Made by a program: the position numbers and the translations under genes. Positions 8,056 through 62,551 of a stretch of 64,000 bases of DNA are shown in pieces. The number at the start of each line of letters is the position of its first letter. Positions within the stretch are counted from its first letter, which is position 1. A model generated the notes under the pieces. The model was not told the origin of the DNA. It did not search any database and worked only from the letters and a program-made list of their open reading frames with translations. The DNA is from Methanobacteriota archaeon (GTDB taxonomy: Archaea; Thermoplasmatota; Poseidoniia; Poseidoniales; Thalassarchaeaceae), in NCBI GenBank assembly GCA_016845365.1, contig JAERST010000003.1, positions 8,961 to 72,960 of the forward strand. Direction: 5' to 3'.

Positions 8056-8129
8056 GCACGAGTGGCAGAGCAGCTATGCAACGGACTGCAGATCCGTGGA
8101 CCCGGGTGCAAATCCCGGCTTGTGCTCCA
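8056..8129 (+). tRNA. tRNA-Cys (GCA), with encoded CCA
   Basis: Hand-folded cloverleaf. Acceptor gcacgag/cttgtgc (one G-U). Anticodon arm acgga-CTGCAGA-tccgt. T arm ccggg-tgcaaat-cccgg. Discriminator t, then cca. The D and T loops are atypical (see findings). Confidence 0.75.
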
Positions 8130-40907: not shown

Positions 40908-42509
40908 ATGGCGAAACACCGCGCGGGCGACCGTCGCATCATCAGTATAAGCATCCCAGAGGACCTTGCCAAGAAGCTCGATAGGCGAGTCGGCAAGGGC
41001 CGAAACAAGGGAAGGTCAGCAACGATCGCAAAAATGATCCAAAATAGCTTGGAAGTCGAGCAAACAGCACCGATTAGCGAGCGCGCGAGCGAGCCCAGAG
41101 CGGCTTCGGGTGCTGCAGGTGAGATTCGAGTCGAGAAGGACACGATGGGCGAGCTAGAAGTTCCAGCAGACCGCTATTTCGGAGCCCAAACCGCTCGCTC
41201 ACTAATCAATTTCGATATCGGAACCGACACCATGGACCCCTCGGTCATCCGCGCCTTCGGAATCCTCAAGCAGGCGGCGGCAGAGACCAATGTCGAACTG
41301 GCACAACTCGATCCACAGATTGGCGCCCTCATCTCAGCCGCCTGCGACGAGGTCATCTCAGGAGCGATGGACGAACACTTCCCGCTCCGAGTCTGGCAAA
41401 CTGGCTCGGGCACTCAAACCAACATGAATTCAAACGAGGTAATCGCCAACCGAGCCATCGAGATGGCCGGCGGCGAATTAGGAAGCAAATCCCCAGTCCA
41501 CCCCAATGACCACGTCAACCGCGGTCAATCCAGCAATGACACATTCCCGACCGCAATGCACATCGCCGCCGCAGAAGAAATCCACCATCGACTTCTGCCA
41601 GCGGTCCGCCACTTGCACAATGCGCTGGCAGCCAAAGCCGCCGAATTCGAGAACATCGTCAAAATCGGCCGCACCCATCTAATGGACGCCGTCCCGCTAA
41701 CCCTCGGCCAGGAATTCGGCGGCTACGCCTCGATGCTCTCAGCAGACATCCGCCGCATCGAGGCAGCCTGGGACGACCTCCTCGAACTCGCGCTCGGAGG
41801 AACAGCGGTCGGCACCGGACTAAACACTCACATCGAGTTCGCAGACAAGGTGGCCGACCGAATCGCAGAGAAGACCGGCCTACCCTTCGTCTCAGCCGAA
41901 AACAAATTCGCACAACTCGCAGCACACGATGCAATAGTAGCCGCATCAGGCTCACTAAACACGCTTGCTGCGAGCCTGATGAAGATCGCCAATGACATCC
42001 GCTGGATGGGATCTGGACCCCGCTGTGGATTCGGAGAACTGGCCCTTCCGGCCAACGAACCAGGGTCGAGTATCATGCCAGGAAAGGTCAACCCAACCCA
42101 AGCCGAAGCGATGACGATGGTCTGTTGTCAGGTAATCGGCAACCACACCGCAATCAGCGTCGGGGGCAGCCAAGGCAACTTCGAACTCAACGTCTACAAG
42201 CCGATGATGATCCACAATTTGCTCCACAGCACACGCCTTCTCGCCGACACCTGCAGGGCCTTCACCGACAGATGCGTGGTCGGGCTCGAGGCCAACGAGG
42301 GTGCGATTGCATCGCACCTCGAGAATAGTCTGATGTTGGTTACAGCGCTGAACAATCACATCGGATACGACAGCGCCGCCAAGATTGCAAAGCACGCGCA
42401 TGCAAATGGAAGCACCTTGCGCGAGGCAGCTGTCGATTTGGGCCTAGTCACGAATGACCAATTCGATCAATGGGTTAGGCCCAAGGAAATGATCGGACCG
42501 AAGCAGTGA
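40908..42509 (+). CDS. fumC: Class II fumarate hydratase with N-terminal ribbon-helix-helix (CopG/NikR-like) extension
   Basis: aa 73 onward [39 protein letters not shown] signature. aa 9-48 [40 protein letters not shown] fits the RHH pattern. One uninterrupted frame. Confidence 0.9.
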
Positions 42510-42599
42510 GTGCGGTAGTGAGTGCGGCATTGGTCCGCAAAGCCCGCGTCCGCGCTAGCCGTCAGAAACCGAAGGCAGCGGAGCGAGATGCTCCGCAAT

Positions 42600-43300
42600 G
42601 ATTGATAACAAGAAGTAAGGGGGCCGCGACCGTACTGAATGGTACAAGGTGGGAGCAGCAGGGGGTTCTGCACATGGGGGAGCATCCCCCCCTGCTGACT
42701 CCGCAGGGTCCGGTTCTTTTTTCCCGCCCGAAGGCGGTTCTTTTTCCCCGGGTAGATGACTTGAGTACTCCGAAGAGCCCTTTCGTCGTTTCCCGCTTCT
42801 TCGGAGATCTCTCTCCGTTTCTGCGTTTCCAATTCCCGCCCCGGCTCTCACCGGTTTGTTTCTTGGAATGAGTGCCGGTCCTCCACGCGTCTCCGCGCTC
42901 TTGTTCCCGCCACGTTTCTCTCAGGTTTCGCGTTCCCTTCCTTGCGTCCGGTTCTCGTCCACCTTTGTTCCCCGTGGATTCGTCTCAAGCCTTCCCCATC
43001 TCTGGTTCTCTTGCCCTTCACGAATGCACTCGCGGTCTGGTTGGCTGGCACGGTCATGTTTTCCCTGCCGAAGCAGTACGGTTGTGTTTTCCCCAGCTTC
43101 CCCCGTGGCTTCATTCCCCCTTCTTTCGTCCGGTTCTTTCCACCTCGGTTCGACCGCATCTCCCCTGACCCAAGTGCCAGGTTCGATCATCCCCGGATTC
43201 CTTGCGGTTTCCGGTTCTACCACCCCGAGTTCGGGGTTCGGTTCTGTGGCCCGCGGTTTGCGCCGGAGCGCGCCCCACACCACTCCCCCGGAGCGGCATC
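42600..43300 (-). ncRNA. Candidate large structured or protein-binding ncRNA (or repeat locus) in a convergent intergenic spacer
   Basis: About 900 nt lies between convergent genes. The + strand is extremely A-poor. TCCGGTTCT x4, GGTTCT x8, CCGAAG x4 (C(UUCG)G on the - strand). Open frames in most phases only because stop codons are depleted. Strand and ends are inferred, not demonstrated. Confidence 0.3.
42656..42746 (+). terminator. Probable fumC termination region: two hairpins, each followed by an oligo-T run
   Basis: Hairpin cagcaggggg/ccccctgctg (42656-42697), then T6 at 42717-42722. Hairpin ccgcc-cgaa-ggcgg (42724-42737), then T5 at 42741-42745. Confidence 0.4.
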
Positions 43301-43368
43301 TTAGGTCTGTGCGGCGGAGGCGCATAAATCTTTCGGCGAATGAGGTACTGTGGACCGGAAATAGGGGT

Positions 43369-43431
43369 CTAAGGATGTTAATTTCCGGTGCGACGCGAGA
43401 TGCGAAATCACCTATTTCTTAACATCCTTAG
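43369..43431 (-). terminator. 13-bp perfect inverted repeat spanning the stop codon of the beta-propeller gene
   Basis: ctaaggatgttaa (43369-43381) / ttaacatccttag (43419-43431), followed on the - strand by cctatttcc. Confidence 0.45.
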
Positions 43432-44463
43432 ACGTGCTCTCAACTCCGAATTCCGGAAGTTTTCAGGAGATGACTCTTCTTCGTCTGATAATCTACGGGT
43501 GACGACCTCTGATTCGACGATGAACACTTTTCCGAGGTCGTCACCGAGCGCCAGGACTTCATTCATCGAGTGCATCTGGCGCAGGCGGGAATCGTGGGCG
43601 ATATTTGTTACCGATTCGGTGAGAATTGTGAGGCTGGATTTTGTGCCAGTCCAGGAGGATGCCCAGGCATCCGAACCTAAGCTTGCAACGGCATCGATAG
43701 CGCCTTCGACCTGGTGCGAAGCGGCCAGACTGCCAATCGTCCCATCATCATGGCCGGAGATCCAACCGATGGGTCCTGCTGTGATTGCGGTCACCAAGGA
43801 GTCACAGAGATTGTCCGTCGTCTCGGTCGAACCGGTGGTGCTGATGGTCCCGTCGGCATGACCGAGGAGGAATCGGTCCTCTGAGCCACAGACTCCGCAA
43901 GTTACTGGGCTCGCGCTGCCCAATTCGAAATGTTCTGCTTGTTCGCCCTGCCGAATTCGCAAATATCCGCAGCGAGGCCGGCCGAGTCCGAGCAGAATTC
44001 CGCCGTCCTCGTGCAGGCCGAGATGCCATGGGCGCTCGGCCATCACCCAGCGTTCCTGTTCTTTTCCACCTTCATCGAATCGCCATATGGTTGATTCGAC
44101 AAAATCGGCGACCTCTAATTCGTACACCGAAGAGGTCGCCCAAACAACTCCATTCCAAGCCTGAACGTAATCACTTGCTCCCTCCAGCTCGCGGCTCCAG
44201 AGCAATTCTCCGCTCGCCGCGTCGACCGCGTGCAGCGAAGCGGAGGCGGTCGCATAGACCCGACCTCCATCGAGCGCTAAGTCAGAAATCGGCCCTTCGA
44301 CCTCCACTCGCCAGCGCTCGTCACCATCCACAGCACCCCAACAAAGCAGGAGACCCTCGTGCGAACCGGCAAGAAGCAAATCTCCAGACAGCCGAATGAC
44401 CGAACAAGCGCTACCAAGGTCTCGCACAAAGGACGCGAGGCTCTCCAAGGTGCGCTCAACCAT
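43408..44463 (-). CDS. PQQ/WD40-like beta-propeller repeat protein
   Basis: Repeated strand motifs (GRVYATASASLHAVDAASGELLW, GVVWATS...), no signal peptide, basic C-terminal tail. Confidence 0.65.
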   Translation of the reverse strand: MVERTLESLASFVRDLGSACSVIRLSGDLLLAGSHEGLLLCWGAVDGDERWRVEVEGPISDLALDGGRVYATASASLHAVDAASGELLWSRELEGASDYVQAWNGVVWATSSVYELEVADFVESTIWRFDEGGKEQERWVMAERPWHLGLHEDGGILLGLGRPRCGYLRIRQGEQAEHFELGSASPVTCGVCGSEDRFLLGHADGTISTTGSTETTDNLCDSLVTAITAGPIGWISGHDDGTIGSLAASHQVEGAIDAVASLGSDAWASSWTGTKSSLTILTESVTNIAHDSRLRQMHSMNEVLALGDDLGKVFIVESEVVTRRLSDEEESSPENFRNSELRARLRMLRNR

Positions 44464-58914: not shown

Positions 58915-60909
58915 TCAAGCCATCCCGAGAATGTGCCACGCCTCAAGGTTGCGACTGCGGATATGTGCCAACCACGCTGCCCAAATCTCGTCATTGCGCA
59001 GCGTGTCGGGGTCGCCGATTACGATGAGGCCGCGGCGCGCTCTGGTGAGTGCGACGTTGAGGCGACGAGGGTCGGCGAGGAATCCGATGTTTCCGTCAGG
59101 GTTGGAGCGCACGCATGAGAAGATGATGACCTCCTTTTCGCGGCCTTGGTAACCGTCTACGGTTCTGACCTCAACCGCCTCGTTGCGTTCGGGGATTGCG
59201 TCGCGGATGGCTCTTACTTGTCCCGCGTAGGGGGTGATGATTCCGATGTCTGATTGGTCGAGGTCGCCCGCTTCGAGTAAGCCGTCTAGGATGCGGGCGA
59301 CCCAGCCGGCTTCGGCTGGGTTTTCTTTCGATGCGCCGTCGGGTGAGAGTAATTCGTCGCCGTTGACTGGTAGGAATGCGATCGGTACTTCCCAATCATT
59401 CCACAGTAGGCCTGCTGGATTGGGTCGTTCAGCTGCTGAAACTCCGTCGATGAGGCGGCCATCGTAGAATGTCTGATTTGGAAATTCGGAGATTGCTGGG
59501 TGCATTCTGTATTGGGTGTCGAGAAGGATTGGTTCTATTCCCATAGCGACTAATCTCTCGAATAGAGAGCGGCGCAGTCCGCCGTTTTCGGCGCGCCGGC
59601 TGATGACTGTTGGAGGGAGTTGACGATGGTCGCCGACGAGGACAACTTGGCGGGCGCCGCGGACTAGAGGAACGAGGCTCGCGGGTTCGGTTGCTTGTGT
59701 CGCCTCGTCGAGGAGGACACGCGAGAATCTACGGCCATCGAGAAGGTCGTGGCCGACTCCGATACAGGTGCAGCAGAGGACTTGAGCGCGCTCGAGAATA
59801 TCGTCGCGCATCTGTCTCTCGATTCGGCGCACCTCCTTCCAACCACGATTCAGATCACGGTGCGCCAATCCCTTCTCCTTGCCCTTCATTCCGGGGATTC
59901 GGCGGGCTAATTTTTCGTTCAGTTCGAGGTGTTCTTCGAGGTCTCGCCGTAATGGGTGAATTTCCATTTGGGCATCGACGGTGGCCTCGCGCAAATTCTC
60001 TCGAACTTTGACCGGTTGACCGAGGCGAACGGCGCGAACGCCGAGAGAGAGAAGCCCCTCGAGCAAATTGTCGACTGCGACGTTTGAATCAGCGACGGCG
60101 AGAATGGTTCCAGTGTCTTGGCTGGACCATGATTGTAGGATGCGGACCGCCGTGTGAGTTTTGCCTGTCCCCGGCGGTCCTTGAATCAAGGTAAGACGCT
60201 GATTAATCGCCGCCTCACAAGCCTTCGATTGAGACTCGTTCAACCCCTCCGGCCGGCTCGCAGGGCGTCGATTTGCCCCTCCGAGTTCCGGCCCAAGTCC
60301 AGCCGTACCAACGGGGTCGTGAACGGTGCCGAGCAAGAGGTCGCGAAGCGGGGCTCCGCCCTCCTCTTCGAAGAGTGAATTTAGGGCGTCGCGCATGCGG
60401 TCGAAGGCGACTTTATTCGCTGCCCTATCGATACGCCAATGACCGCTGCGAACACCGCTCGGCAATTCTGGTAAAACGATGCGAATCCGATTGCGCGAGC
60501 GGTCCGAGACAATCGCTTCAATCGGCCTCTCGCCGATTGGATCGCCCCGACTCAGCATCACAATATCGCCTTGGCGAAAGCGATGCGAGCCCAAATCAGC
60601 GCGTCCATCGAGCTGCAATTTGACGATGCGCTGACCGAATAACCAACCATCAGGACGCGCCCTCAAATCGAATAGAGCAAGGCCGTGAGCTGCAAGTTTT
60701 GCTCGCGACCAATTCCGCAACCGCTCCTCGGTCGCGTCCAATTCATCATCCAATTCCCATCGAATCAGCCGCATGTAGGCTTCGTGATGATCCTGGCTGC
60801 GAGTGAACCTCGCTGGGAGTCCACCATCTGAGTCCGAAGACCTGCCATGCGAGTCCACGAACGCTCTCCGGAGAACCCCGCTCATCACGTTTCGCCAGCC
60901 CAAGTTCAC
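58915..60909 (-). CDS. Superfamily 1 helicase, Upf1/DNA2-like (AAA_11/AAA_12)
   Basis: GPPGTGKTHT Walker A, VLLDEATQA, GDHRQLPP, VDGYQGREKEVIIFS, NVALTRAR. Confidence 0.85.
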   Translation of the reverse strand: MNLGWRNVMSGVLRRAFVDSHGRSSDSDGGLPARFTRSQDHHEAYMRLIRWELDDELDATEERLRNWSRAKLAAHGLALFDLRARPDGWLFGQRIVKLQLDGRADLGSHRFRQGDIVMLSRGDPIGERPIEAIVSDRSRNRIRIVLPELPSGVRSGHWRIDRAANKVAFDRMRDALNSLFEEEGGAPLRDLLLGTVHDPVGTAGLGPELGGANRRPASRPEGLNESQSKACEAAINQRLTLIQGPPGTGKTHTAVRILQSWSSQDTGTILAVADSNVAVDNLLEGLLSLGVRAVRLGQPVKVRENLREATVDAQMEIHPLRRDLEEHLELNEKLARRIPGMKGKEKGLAHRDLNRGWKEVRRIERQMRDDILERAQVLCCTCIGVGHDLLDGRRFSRVLLDEATQATEPASLVPLVRGARQVVLVGDHRQLPPTVISRRAENGGLRRSLFERLVAMGIEPILLDTQYRMHPAISEFPNQTFYDGRLIDGVSAAERPNPAGLLWNDWEVPIAFLPVNGDELLSPDGASKENPAEAGWVARILDGLLEAGDLDQSDIGIITPYAGQVRAIRDAIPERNEAVEVRTVDGYQGREKEVIIFSCVRSNPDGNIGFLADPRRLNVALTRARRGLIVIGDPDTLRNDEIWAAWLAHIRSRNLEAWHILGMA

Positions 60910-61042
60910 CCCTGTGGCAACCCCAAGTTCCCCCCCTCGTCAAACAGGTGTGAGTATGCTGCGTGAAGTCCGCCGTTTACAACGGCGGGTGAGGGTTATA
61001 CGCAGAACACGGCCGAACGGGCCCGTCTGTGGAGGCTGGGCC

Positions 61043-62551
61043 ATGGTATTTGACAAGTTCAAAAATTGGCGGAAGGGGGCGGTCGGACCGACCGTTGAGT
61101 GTCCACTTTGTCACACCCCAAACCCGGAGGATGCCAGCGAATGTTCGCAGTGCATGTACCAATTAGGCAAGGCTGCCTTTGAGCAGGTCGCCGCGGTTGA
61201 CGATGAGGAAGCGGGCAGCCTATTCGACGAACTGCTCGCCGATTTCGATGATGATGAAGAGGAGGAAGTCATCGATTGGTCGAAGGGAACTTTCACCATG
61301 GACGATGTTACAATCGACGTCGAACAATACGGCGACGGGGACGGAATCAAGCTCAGCGCGAACCCAACTTTTGCGATGACCGTCGACCATCCAGACCCCG
61401 TCGAAGAGGACGAGGGAGACTACGAACTCACTGCGGCGGATGCGCCTGAGTTCGTGACTAAATTTGAGATGCCCGAGACCGAGGAAGAGCCTCTTGAGGA
61501 AGTTCAGCCTCAGCAGATTGAATTGGTTCAACCGACCGCTGAGGCTGCGGAAAATGTTGAGGTCGTAGCGGCGGATGCAATTCCTGACCGTAACGGCTCG
61601 AGGTCGGCATCCAAGCCAGCGCCGAAGGCCAAGCCAGAGCCGAAGCAGGCAGAGGAGCCTGCGGTCGAGGCAGCCGCTGAGCCGGTGGCTGAGCCCGAGC
61701 TTGAGACCGAGCCGGAGACAACCGTCGAGGCCGAACCCGAAGCGGAGGCGGAGGAAGATCCTGAATCAGCCGGAGAGCCGGCAGAAATCACAGAAGAATC
61801 TCTACTCTCTCTGAAGAAGGTCGAATTGGTCGAAATGGCCGAGGAAGCCGGCCTTTCCACCTCGGGGACCAAGGCAGAACTCGCCGAGAGAATCATCGCT
61901 GGTCCTCAGGAAGAGGAAGCGCCGGCTGAGCCCGAACCAGAGGTTGAGGCCGAAGCAGAAGTCGAGGAAGTGGCTGAACCTGAGCCTGAGTCGGAGCCGG
62001 AGTCAGAACCCGAGACCGAACCCGAACCTATGCCGGCGCCTCCAATCGTCGTCCCTGCCGCACCGGCTGGAATGCCACCACCACCTCCAGTCGCAGCCCG
62101 CGCCGTCGACCCGATGGACGCAGCATTCGACGGCAAGCAAGAGATTCCTCTGGCCAAAGCAAATGCGGTCATGGATCGGCCGACCCCGCCGCGAATCCCG
62201 AAGATTCCCAAGATGCCACATATCGCCGAAGCAAATGCGGCTCTCAATACTGCAGAGAACAATGGCTACTGGCCTTGGCCACAACAGGACGAGTGGTCAA
62301 ATCGCGATGTTGCGATGAAGATCAAGGAGGCCATGGAGGCTGCGAAGCGACGCGACGTGGCCCAAGTTACTGTGCTTCTTGACGAGGTTGGGCCACACTT
62401 GGGAGAGCGCACCAAATTGCTCTATCCAATCGGTGCGCTCTTGCAAAGAATCGGCCGCGCATCAGCCGTCGACAAAATGATTGCAGCAGCGGTCAAAGCT
62501 CAGCCCGATGACCAACAAGTCAAGACGGCGAAGGCAAAATTGCGTCCGTGA
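61043..62551 (+). CDS. Zinc-ribbon / acidic / SAP(HeH)-motif protein
   Basis: CPLCHTPNPEDASECSQC ribbon. Long E/P/A low-complexity acidic stretches. LLSLKKVELVEMAEEAGLSTSGTKAELAERII SAP-like motif. Helical C-terminal domain. Confidence 0.6.
   Translation: MVFDKFKNWRKGAVGPTVECPLCHTPNPEDASECSQCMYQLGKAAFEQVAAVDDEEAGSLFDELLADFDDDEEEEVIDWSKGTFTMDDVTIDVEQYGDGDGIKLSANPTFAMTVDHPDPVEEDEGDYELTAADAPEFVTKFEMPETEEEPLEEVQPQQIELVQPTAEAAENVEVVAADAIPDRNGSRSASKPAPKAKPEPKQAEEPAVEAAAEPVAEPELETEPETTVEAEPEAEAEEDPESAGEPAEITEESLLSLKKVELVEMAEEAGLSTSGTKAELAERIIAGPQEEEAPAEPEPEVEAEAEVEEVAEPEPESEPESEPETEPEPMPAPPIVVPAAPAGMPPPPPVAARAVDPMDAAFDGKQEIPLAKANAVMDRPTPPRIPKIPKMPHIAEANAALNTAENNGYWPWPQQDEWSNRDVAMKIKEAMEAAKRRDVAQVTVLLDEVGPHLGERTKLLYPIGALLQRIGRASAVDKMIAAAVKAQPDDQQVKTAKAKLRP

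Follow-up and report, generated by a model that had tools for sequence, protein, structure and literature searches.

What occupies the 898 nt between fumC and the gene for a PQQ-type β-propeller protein in a marine group IIb (MGIIb) archaeon of the Thalassarchaeaceae? In the window, by which we mean the whole 64-kb stretch of DNA analysed, fumC takes up an ORF on the plus strand at 40908–42509 (Pfam Lyase_1/FumaraseC_C) and the β-propeller gene one on the minus strand at 43408–44463 (Pfam PQQ_2); these ORF ends agree with a preliminary description of the locus, which had placed a spacer of about 900 nt between the two convergent genes. We are highly confident that the spacer is a minus-strand gene for a structured noncoding RNA (ncRNA), which we place at 42610–43300, with a length of about 680–690 nt and with both ends estimated (5′ ± 5 nt, 3′ ± 15 nt). 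The generic criteria for such an RNA are met: there are compensatory pairs beyond those of controls, and the gene has BRE/TATA and oligo-T signals of its own.

Composition of the spacer and its repeated hairpin module

The plus strand of the spacer is poor in A. The content between 42840 and 43260, previously put at 5–10% by eye, was measured as 8.8% (9.3% over 42700–43260), compared with 22.2% in the window, and the 64-kb minima of both the A fraction (0.085) and the purine fraction (0.29) in 400-nt segments fall inside the spacer. The minus-strand RNA of the window species is 68% purine and only 9% U. Divergent members of the family contain 17–25% U and, because the depletion is therefore extreme in one lineage only, it must be dispensable for the function of the RNA. 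The minus strand also contains G-tracts such as GGAAGGGGAAGG. Elsewhere in the window, at 60803–62551, there is a genuine gene for an acidic low-complexity protein.

Recounting the repeats gave the same numbers and positions as those in the preliminary description. The 9-mer TCCGGTTCT is found at 42709, 42947, 43129 and 43210, with five copies in the whole window, all on the plus strand; GGTTCT has eight copies, every one on the plus strand; GTCCGGTTCT occurs three times, followed by CCACC after spacers of 3, 2 and 1 nt; and CCGAAG is found at 42569, 42728, 42770 and 43068. A search of the 64 kb returned three matches to RGAACYGGAC against 0.44 expected, all three in the spacer.

Each AGAACCGGA site forms the 5′ half of a hairpin module that is GA-rich, has a GNRA loop and follows the consensus RGAAC-Y-GGA-C-GNRA-G-GAA-GG-GGA. 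Copy A of the module, GGUGGAAAGAACCGGAC-GAAA-GAAGGGGGAA (43112–43145, minus strand), is a GA-rich hairpin with a GNRA loop closed by a C-G pair, supported by the consensus and by copy-number variation; across relatives its closing pair is CG in 50 cases and GC in 12, and its Y-G pair appears as CG, UG or UA. Copy B, GGUGGACGAGAACCGGAC-GCAA-GGAAGGGAAC (42932–42964, minus strand), is supported by the alignment of relatives and by the module consensus. Individual RNAs have between 0 and 6 copies, a number that correlates with their length (r = 0.81), one relative (L024) carrying six near-identical 52-nt copies and RNAs of the L035 type a tandem duplication of 335 nt, and it is through duplication that module copy number varies. 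A strict copy is absent from 14 of the 128 RNAs, and two module positions are retained in most. Mimicry of a Shine–Dalgarno sequence was considered and rejected, as the family has the consensus GUGGAG ahead of the module, an order that is not Shine–Dalgarno-like.

Strand, conservation and structure of the RNA

GNRA or UNCG tetraloops make up 448 of 648 loops on the minus strand and one of 588 on the plus strand, the alignment folding energy is −120.9 for the minus strand and −85.3 for the plus strand, and the single-sequence folding z-scores relative to shuffles are −3.19 and −0.66, respectively. Loops and folding thus show, without transcript data, that the minus strand is the one transcribed and, together with the covariation, the promoter and the 3′ end, they agree with the purine-rich minus-strand transcript of about 700 nt inferred in the preliminary description.

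About 200 contigs from genomes and metagenomes carry the spacer at this same locus, with nucleotide identities from 93% down to 60%. It directly follows fumC in 45 of 80 Poseidoniales species genomes (93% to 60% identity over 640–860 nt), and the neighbouring β-propeller protein falls to as little as 33% amino acid identity in relatives. The RNA sequence alone brought up at least 120 further contigs from metagenomes and, among those with room for the neighbouring genes, fumC adjoins the RNA in 112 of 113 and the β-propeller gene in 78 of 80. The RNA gene is fixed at this one locus, in the arrangement fumC > < RNA < β-propeller, throughout MGIIb; in MGIIa, where we looked only at fumC loci, the element is absent beside fumC in Poseidoniaceae, and the conserved pattern was not found in viral contigs. 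Homologous spacers, which the preliminary description had proposed to seek in related genomes, are therefore present and conserved, without codon-like substitution patterns or decaying pseudogenes. A conserved core (42647–43298) is common to the approximately 200 loci. Across the whole family, in which the RNA is 0.5–1.4 kb long (about 680 nt in the window), only two end structures are conserved, the 5′ hairpin P1 and a 3′ structure of the form GCGGAG-hairpin-CUCCCAMC, and between them the middle of the RNA evolves fast and is replaced, duplicated and resized.

Covariation, another check that had been called for, was pronounced. In alignment A1, 45 of 89 pairs show compensatory changes, and the covariation score of 0.372, compared with 0.05–0.09 in slid controls, was reached by none of 500 shuffles. 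In the 3′ domain (alignment A4, 55 distinct sequences), compensatory changes are seen at 15 of 18 pairs, and pairing is maintained in 97.0% of cells, compared with 41–53% in slid controls; a MAFFT alignment of this domain across distant lineages gave only seven pairs and hid the structure, which was recovered when a covariance model was used in its place. The intermediates among the compensatory changes are G-U in 752 cases and A-C in 128. Hairpins of the C-GNRA-G type have a density of 6–7 per kb in the main and divergent lineages alike. In addition, the unpaired segments GGGCCAC, GAGUCAUCUACCC and GGACCCUGCGGAGU are invariant, which suggests that the RNA has a core with a specific fold and is not merely a passive sponge.

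The elements of the RNA, all on the minus strand, are described here from the 5′ end. P1, the 5′-terminal hairpin GCCGCUCC-GGG-GGAGUGGU (43279–43297), is 100% paired with three compensatory pairs; no other element of the family is so widely conserved, and P1 is found in all divergent lineages. P2 (43253–43278) is a GUGGG/CCGC helix around a variable hairpin; it is locally compensated (GC to AU, UG to CG), with the variants GCGAG/CUCGC in the L137 type and UGUCGG/CCGGCA in the L035 type. A helix closing the 5′ and 3′ ends, GGUGUGGG/CUCCCACC, was predicted by both RNAalifold and minimum free energy folding, but we rejected it because it is disrupted by the variants found in L137 and in the L035 group, whereas the local P2 is compensated. 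We likewise rejected a pairing between the 3′ tail and the GGUGG elements that precede the modules, as GGUGG does not change to GUUGG where the tail is CCCAAC. The hairpins P3, P4 (with a GCAA loop) and P5 follow at 43159–43242, joined by AGAA/GGA linkers, with two to four compensatory pairs per helix and a copy of AGAACCGGA at 43210–43218. A long-range helix, 43153–43156/43033–43036, in which four of five pairs are compensatory, closes a domain (43033–43156) that holds module A and a CUGC-UUCG-GCAG hairpin (43064–43075).

The central multi-helix domain (42871–43028) has three helices with three or four compensatory pairs each, the long-range helix 43024–43028/42871–42875 and the inner helices 42973–42976/42911–42914 and 42894–42898/42885–42889, and contains the invariant GGGAACAAGAGCG...GUGGAGGA. 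Beyond it lie three or four variable hairpins (42754–42866; three to six compensatory pairs per helix), including GAGAUCUC (42802–42817) and CUC-UUCG-GAG (42764–42781), and then a CCCGG/CCGGA(C) helix (42710–42751), with GC to CG or AU changes, around a CCGCC-UUCG-GGCGG hairpin (42720–42740) whose loop is UACG or GAAA in relatives. The 3′ domain (42644–42710) consists of GCGGAG, a long covarying hairpin and the CUCCCACC tail; the covariance model R1 matches it with 96 bits (E 7e-23), as the sole copy in the window. Of the hairpins that had been proposed from the window alone, the 10-bp stem (42656–42665/42688–42697) is real and covaries, as do the stems of the two CUUCGG hairpins, ctgc-ttcg-gcag and ccgcc-ttcg-ggcgg, in relatives. 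The hairpin at 42578–42596 and the copy of CCGAAG at 42569 do exist, but both are conserved in close relatives only and fall outside the RNA, past its likely 3′ end.

Upstream of the RNA, on the same strand, a BRE and TATA box, GAAAGATTTAT (43324–43334), conforms to (C/G)RAAGGTTTA(T/A), which is invariant in all lineages. The weak TATA-like sequence previously noticed near 43322–43332 is this element. The distance from the promoter (GAAAGRTTTAW) to P1 is fixed at 27 nt in all lineages, and no other site in the 64 kb matches this sequence. We infer a transcription start at about 43300, a position for which there is no RNA evidence. Between the β-propeller stop codon and the BRE, a conserved inverted repeat, (C)ACCGGAAAT...ATTTCCGGT (43355–43395, not assigned to a strand), has invariant GGAAAT/ATTTCC cores and outer positions without compensation, and is inferred to be an operator-like element. 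At the other end, a trailer on the minus strand (42603–42645), made up of the hairpin GUAC-CAUUCA-GUAC (42632–42645) and the U-rich CUUACUUCUUGUUAUC, is a probable terminator, a role that is again inferred. In most lineages the 3′ tail is followed by a run of T5–T10, which in relatives comes within 20–45 nt after the invariant CCCACC and adjoins the stop codon of fumC; the U-rich patch at 42603–42620, earlier suggested as a possible terminator, matches these runs in position. Short contigs (658–1026 nt) were considered as evidence of expression and set aside as not being transcripts, because they are of metagenomic origin and carry sequence from upstream of the promoter.

Possible roles and alternative explanations

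The explanation that we favour overall, and consider probable, is that of an independent large structured ncRNA gene whose product acts as a scaffold or as a platform for multivalent binding, both transcription and binding being inferred. The RNA would be transcribed on its own from about 43300 to about 42610 and would accumulate as a stable particle protected by its end hairpins, and it may then act as the platform itself, the reiterated GA-rich GNRA hairpins and recurring GGA/GAA purine blocks serving as putative docking sites for one or a few proteins, with a number that could be tuned by duplicating 50-nt modules or 335-nt segments. As to mechanism, scaffolding or titration can be put forward only tentatively, and a stable RNP scaffold is our best guess, no partner protein having been identified. 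The copy number of 0–6 that tracks length, the 335-nt duplication and the restriction of family-wide conservation to the end structures support the scaffold idea; counted against it are flanking genes that give no functional hint, the 14 of 128 RNAs without a strict module, and the fact that GNRA loops, like A-rich linkers, are no less typical of RNAs that make RNA–RNA tertiary contacts through them.

This last point leads to a possibility that we doubt but take seriously, namely that the same ncRNA gene acts through its own three-dimensional fold, as a self-assembling or catalytic RNA like OLE, ROOL, GOLLD or a ribozyme, in which the GNRA loops, A-rich linkers and GGA/GAA blocks make tertiary or intermolecular RNA–RNA contacts. 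The density of C-GNRA-G hairpins in main and divergent lineages, the nested domains defined by covarying long-range helices, the several invariant unpaired segments and folding 3.2 standard deviations better than shuffles are all consistent with such a fold. However, sequence conservation across the family is confined to the terminal hairpins, a middle that leaves the RNA anywhere from 0.5 to 1.4 kb long would be unusual for a catalytic core, and no receptor motifs were identified.

It is improbable that the element is a long structured 3′ UTR of the β-propeller mRNA, or a convergent antisense RNA or terminator regulating fumC, although it lies on the same strand as the β-propeller gene and directly downstream of it at nearly all loci, and its 3′ end abuts the fumC stop codon in many lineages. 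The invariant BRE/TATA, at its fixed distance from the first hairpin, stands between the β-propeller stop codon and the RNA, the RNA is conserved far better than the β-propeller gene, and a covarying structure of 0.5–1.4 kb is disproportionate for a UTR or terminator. We regard as very improbable an element acting at the level of DNA, such as a protein-binding array, a replication or segregation site, or a tract prone to R-loops or G-quadruplexes. The unidirectional motifs, the extreme purine/pyrimidine strand asymmetry and the minus-strand G-tracts such as GGAAGGGGAAGG would fit one, but the many G-U and few A-C intermediates (752 and 128), the strand-specific grammar of GNRA/UNCG loops and the conserved promoter are signatures of RNA and argue against it, and no Orc/Cdc6 context was seen.

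The coding-potential check proposed in the preliminary description found neither a conserved frame, nor a period-3 signal, nor indels in threes. No ORF is conserved in six-frame maps of 45 relatives, and low-GC relatives have 4–16 stops per frame in the spacer; no period-3 substitution signal was detected (power 5.3 times the median, compared with 689 for fumC and 149 for the β-propeller gene); gaps are in multiples of three in 18% of cases, compared with 100% in fumC and 98% in the β-propeller gene; and a database search with the longest minus-strand ORF returned 12 unnamed proteins and nothing else. A real or decayed minus-strand gene for a charged, K/E/R/G-rich low-complexity protein can thus be discounted almost entirely, the period-3 and indel tests having refuted any protein-coding gene or pseudogene: most frames are indeed long-open, one minus-strand frame has a single TGA over about 265 codons, AGAACCGGA is in the same frame in three of its four copies and gene callers occasionally call the ORFs (the 12 unnamed proteins), but the ORFs are not kept among relatives, 82% of gap runs break the frame, and an RNA with only 9% U trivially yields open frames.

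Novelty and comparison with known RNAs

Large structured ncRNAs are rare and, to our knowledge, almost all known classes are either universal (rRNA, RNase P, SRP) or bacterial. The bacterial classes include OLE, GOLLD, ROOL, HEARO and raiA, and each known large class has either revealed new biology or long resisted explanation. A class of 0.5–1.4 kb confined to MGIIb, which are uncultured and globally abundant archaea, would join this short list. It is conceivable, but in our judgement unlikely, that the RNA is the first large, highly structured Archaea-specific class besides the universal RNAs and the core of an unknown RNP or self-assembling particle; just as uncertain is the fuller form of this reading, in which GA-rich GNRA hairpins form an expandable array from which the class is built, within an archaeal group that is among the most abundant in the surface ocean. 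If it holds, the low-complexity ORFs called here would be artefacts of a U-poor RNA. The RNA may account for wrongly called ORFs in MGII genomes that pass for low-complexity proteins. Its conservation is as strong as that of a gene of central metabolism; it is a testable target for ocean metatranscriptomes and a marker for MGIIb, and its growth, module by module through the duplication of hairpins, provides a natural experiment in the evolution of large RNAs.

Scanning the window with Rfam 15 (4227 models, among them OLE, GOLLD, ROOL, HEARO, raiA, RNase P, SRP, group I/II introns and the IMES RNAs) at the gathering threshold returned tRNA-Cys only, and permissive scans of 42300–43700 and of the relatives L035 and L070 gave only chance matches to miRNAs and IRESs (E ≥ 0.4), so that the spacer still matches no RNA family, as first reported. 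We found no published RNA that matches it, leaving undetermined any overlap with Tan1 (see below). As it matches no described family, we count it, with that one reservation, as a new large RNA of unknown function.

The part GAACC...GGGGA of the module resembles the non-canonical stem of Kt-7, and C-GNRA-G-GAA the 3′ half of the sarcin–ricin loop. A kink-turn (L7Ae site) was rejected, by inspection only, as the module has no 3-nt bulge with an adjacent Watson–Crick C-stem: the would-be C-stem sequences UGG and AGG are not complementary, and the purine pairs are of the GAACC/GGGGA type. A sarcin–ricin or bulged-G motif was rejected because, although the 3′ G-GAA and C-GNRA-G are present, the 5′ side is an invariant GGA rather than AGUA, and the U of the U.A pair is missing. 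With these defining features absent on inspection, the module is assigned to neither.

Tan1 (Thalassoarchaea ncRNA 1) is a highly abundant MGIIb ncRNA of 229 nt with a ‘complex secondary structure’, no match in Rfam and homologues that are 75–79% identical (Hou et al. 2016, PMC5069720). The spacer RNA shares with it the clade (MGIIb, ‘Thalassoarchaea’), a structured nature and the lack of an Rfam match, but is about 680 nt long rather than 229 nt. Tan1 could be the well-conserved 5′ region of about 230 nt (43300 to about 43071), or the product of an unrelated gene. An identification of the spacer RNA with the ‘IDP mRNAs’ of Hou et al., for which no sequences have been compared, is weakened by the genuine acidic low-complexity gene at 60803–62551.

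Yeast telomerase RNA also links small conserved elements, here the 5′ and 3′ ends, by fast-evolving arms of variable size; there is no template region or reverse transcriptase context in our case, and the likeness is architectural only. With CsrB/RsmZ the spacer RNA shares a short motif reiterated on hairpins of one RNA, with copies that vary among relatives; the protein-titrating role suggested in the preliminary description, which is an inference, would be of this kind. However, its motif is not a loop GGA but part of the stem and internal loop of a GA-rich GNRA hairpin, and the criterion for RNAs of this type is not met, the loops being GNRA/UNCG and the GGA triplets lying in stems and internal loops. 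In addition, it has a large conserved long-range fold, which such sponges lack, and we know of no description in archaea of CsrA, a bacterial protein.

The resemblance to OLE, ROOL and GOLLD extends to a size of 0.5–0.8 kb and upwards, a stand-alone gene, dense covarying helices that include long-range ones, many GNRA loops, blocks of invariant unpaired nucleotides, discovery by comparative genomics and a gene context that is uninformative on function. In contrast to these RNAs, whose Rfam 15 covariance models do not match it, the spacer RNA is archaeal, has a BRE/TATA promoter, is 68% purine with 9% U in this lineage, and lies at a fixed chromosomal locus without phage or operon association, where its middle is resized by the duplication of hairpin modules.

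Locus, composition and distribution of the spacer

The source organism is an O1-like marine group IIb (MGIIb) archaeon of the Thalassarchaeaceae, in which fumC (an ORF at 40908..42509, + strand; Pfam Lyase_1/FumaraseC_C) and a PQQ-type beta-propeller gene (an ORF at 43408..44463, − strand, assigned by Pfam) converge on a spacer of 898 nt. The + strand had been described as A-poor, and indeed A makes up only 8.8% of 42840-43260 compared with 22.2% across the window; the 64-kb minima of A content and of purine content (+ strand) both lie inside the spacer, and the depletion persists in low-GC relatives (8-15% A). All of the sequence features listed in the preliminary description were found, namely the four copies each of TCCGGTTCT and CCGAAG, every one in its place, eight copies of GGTTCT, always on the + strand, and the 10-bp stem 42656/42697. 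In addition, RGAACYGGAC has three matches in 64 kb (0.44 expected), every one in the spacer.

The window's fumC matched 80 Poseidoniales species genomes at 94-72% amino acid identity, and in about 45 of these 80 loci blastn found the spacer immediately 3′ of fumC, with 93% to about 66% identity over 640-860 nt (92-60% in the MAFFT alignment). At the same loci the amino acid identity of the beta-propeller protein drops from 79% to 33%; judged by sequence identity, the spacer is better conserved than this neighbouring gene. Searching with a pattern based on the best-conserved spacer block, and without reference to fumC, added at least 120 metagenome contigs, and nhmmer then recovered 128 full-length copies that differ from one another (503-915 nt). 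Where the metagenome contigs left room, fumC was adjacent in 112 of 113 cases and the propeller gene in 78 of 80, which indicates a single fixed locus. The pattern was absent from viral contigs, and the fumC loci of MGIIa (Poseidoniaceae), the only MGIIa loci considered, were without the RNA gene, which is so far specific to MGIIb. A contig filed under a 'Yoonia sp.' MAG (L072, CAXRJJ010000018.1) carries an MGIIb-type fumC (72% identity) and a match to R1, our covariance model of the RNA's 3′ domain, and is probably a binning contaminant.

Three observations concern the flanking genes themselves. FumC begins with an extension of ~70 residues (40908-41120) that matches a ribbon-helix-helix domain, though only weakly and below cutoff (PF01402, E 0.0018); since the alignments to all 80 Poseidoniales fumC loci begin at residue 1, the attachment of this DNA-binding-like part to fumarase is a conserved trait. 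A tandem 12-mer, AGTGAGTGCGGT (1.9 copies, 42505-42527), overlaps the fumC stop codon, and a perfect 15-nt inverted repeat, GTCTAAGGATGTTAA at 43367-43381 and TTAACATCCTTAGAC at 43419-43433, brackets that of the beta-propeller gene and may form the 3′ hairpin of its mRNA.

Coding potential, strand and transcription signals

No reading frame is open across the relatives, with 4-16 stops per frame in low-GC members. Measured on matched alignments, the period-3 power (relative to the median) was 5.3 for the spacer, compared with 689 for fumC and 149 for the propeller gene, and only 18% of its gap runs were multiples of three, compared with 100% and 98%, respectively; on these grounds a coding gene is unlikely. 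The long ORFs of the window's spacer follow from its 9% U, and the longest minus-strand ORF, searched against 5.8 billion predicted proteins, returned 12 unnamed calls and nothing else.

The minus-strand origin proposed for the RNA was upheld both by its loops and by its folding. In the alignment consensus fold, the minus strand had GNRA or UNCG in 448 of its 648 four-base loops and the plus strand in 1 of its 588, and the alignment folding term was −120.9 compared with −85.3 kcal/mol. The window sequence alone folded 3.2 sd better than its shuffles as minus strand (none of 20 shuffles reached it) and 0.7 sd better as plus strand. The hairpin at 42720-42740 is CCGCC-UUCG-GGCGG in the window and has UACG or GAAA loops with altered stems in relatives.

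The minus-strand sequence of 43334-43324 is GAAAGATTTAT, the window's single match to its BRE/TATA consensus; no lineage, however divergent, departs from (C/G)RAAGGTTTA(T/A), and throughout it precedes the first hairpin by 27 nt. Archaeal promoters comprise a BRE and a TATA box centred near −26, and the RNA should therefore start at about 43300, a prediction made without transcript data; cross-lineage conservation begins exactly there. At the other end, a small hairpin (42632-42645, −) is followed by CUUACUUCUUGUUAUC at 42603-42620; the invariant 3′ tail is GCUCCCACC(U), and in most lineages a T5-T10 run abutting the fumC stop codon follows within 20-45 nt. Past the U-rich patch, the hairpin GCGGAGC-GAGAT-GCTCCGC (42578-42596), kept in O1-type relatives only, may be a terminator structure on the fumC side.

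Between the beta-propeller stop codon and the BRE/TATA, at about 43355-43395, lies a conserved inverted repeat, GGAAAT...ATTTCC, the longer form of which is (C)AGTGGAAAT...ATTTCC(A/G)GTG; divergent lineages have two or three copies of TGGAAA(A/T) in this region. Because its outer positions are not compensated, the repeat looks more like a DNA operator (a transcription-factor site) than an RNA hairpin, an inference made without binding data. tRNA-Cys (GCA) at 8056-8129, the one RNA gene that Rfam or ARAGORN recognises in the window, has no obvious upstream BRE/TATA, unlike the spacer RNA with its strong consensus promoter.

Secondary structure and the repeated module

RNAalifold was run on 63 sequences below 95% identity and, separately, on 21 diverse sequences, and both consensus folds contained some 20-30 helices. 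From the 5′ end, hairpin P1 (43279-43297, −) is followed by helix P2, a three-hairpin cluster, long-range helices (43153-43156/43033-43036 and 43024-43028/42871-42875, −) that enclose nested domains, several variable hairpins and the 3′ domain. In the unfitted MAFFT alignment 96.6% of cells were paired, compared with 37-45% when partners were slid, and 45 of 89 pairs showed compensatory changes, compared with 8-14; the covariation score was 0.372 (slid, 0.05-0.09), which none of 500 shuffles reached. Deriving the structure from the same alignment inflates the paired cells, not the compensatory counts. A 5′-3′ closing helix offered by the folding programs was rejected, because its variants are uncompensated whereas those of the competing local helix P2 are compensated.

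In the window the covariance model of the 3′ domain has a single hit (42644-42710, −; 96 bits), and it also finds copies in the divergent lineages. Among 55 distinct sequences, 15 of its 18 pairs were compensatory and 97.0% of cells were paired, compared with 41-53% slid. Its stem is fully rewritten between lineages, for example GCAGGGGG/CCCCCUGC, UGGCUGGCGGG/CCCGCCAGCCA and CUGGUGAGUGGG/CCCACUCACCAG, while GCGGAG and CUCCCA(C/A)C are unchanged.

AGAACCGGA proved to form the 5′ side of a hairpin module whose consensus is GUGGAGAGAAC(C/U)GGAC-G(C/A)AA-GGAAGGGGAAGG. Its GNRA loop is closed by a C-G pair (CG:50, GC:12), below which lie a GGA/GAA purine block, a C-G plus a Y-G pair (CG/UG/UA) and AA(R)/GG(A); the GGA...GAA block also flanks the 3′-domain apex. 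Each RNA holds 0-6 strict copies, a number correlated with RNA length (r = 0.81), and in one related locus (L024) six copies of 52 nt, nearly identical, have been inserted at separate sites. In lineages of the L035 type the spacer reaches 1.1-1.5 kb with no conserved ORF, and the RNA retains the promoter, P1 and the 3′ domain; a tandem duplication of ~335 nt with a second 3′-domain hairpin occurs in L035 (5702-6366) and in L036, L037 and L043. Retained ends, internal duplication and varying copy number together define an RNA family with conserved ends and an expandable middle.

Identity, possible action and comparison with known RNAs

The overall reading of the preliminary description, a purine-rich, structured minus-strand RNA, was correct and the feature is real, on the evidence of conservation, strand, promoter, covariation and lack of coding. 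The spacer is well supported as an independent gene that encodes a large structured ncRNA; a 3′ UTR or antisense role is unlikely, as is a DNA-level element. The spacer RNA represents a new class of large structured RNAs from an archaeal family that is abundant yet uncultured, although its function is not shown. We suggest, only tentatively, a stable ribonucleoprotein scaffold or a multivalent protein-binding RNA, in view of terminal hairpins that would protect its ends, a middle that is rapidly resized and made up of repeated GA-rich GNRA hairpins, and a promoter that is strong, invariant and accompanied by an operator-like element. Only slightly less likely in our view is the main rival, in which the RNA acts by way of its own tertiary structure or by self-assembly, on the model of OLE, ROOL or GOLLD.

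As the preliminary description had stated, no Rfam 15 family matches the window's spacer RNA, and none matches two divergent members; no description of such an RNA was found in the literature. Hou et al. 2016 (PMC5069720) reported RNase P and SRP RNAs in MGII, an abundant 229-nt ncRNA of Thalassoarchaea (Tan1), and mRNAs for intrinsically disordered proteins ('IDP'), one cluster of which is labelled by contig accession only. Tan1 could correspond to the first ~230 nt, at the conserved 5′ end, of the spacer RNA, and the unannotated 'IDP' cluster could consist of ORFs predicted on that RNA, both suggestions being made without sequence comparison. Against the latter, the window encodes elsewhere (60803-62551, +) a genuine protein of the 'intrinsically disordered' type, a very acidic, E/P/A-rich, low-complexity protein of 582 aa, at the purine maximum of the window's + strand. 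A Csr-type sponge was ruled out by motif placement. Although it is without the defining bulge with C-stem of the K-turn and the defining AGUA strand of sarcin-ricin, the module is one that we take to resemble the GA motifs of both.
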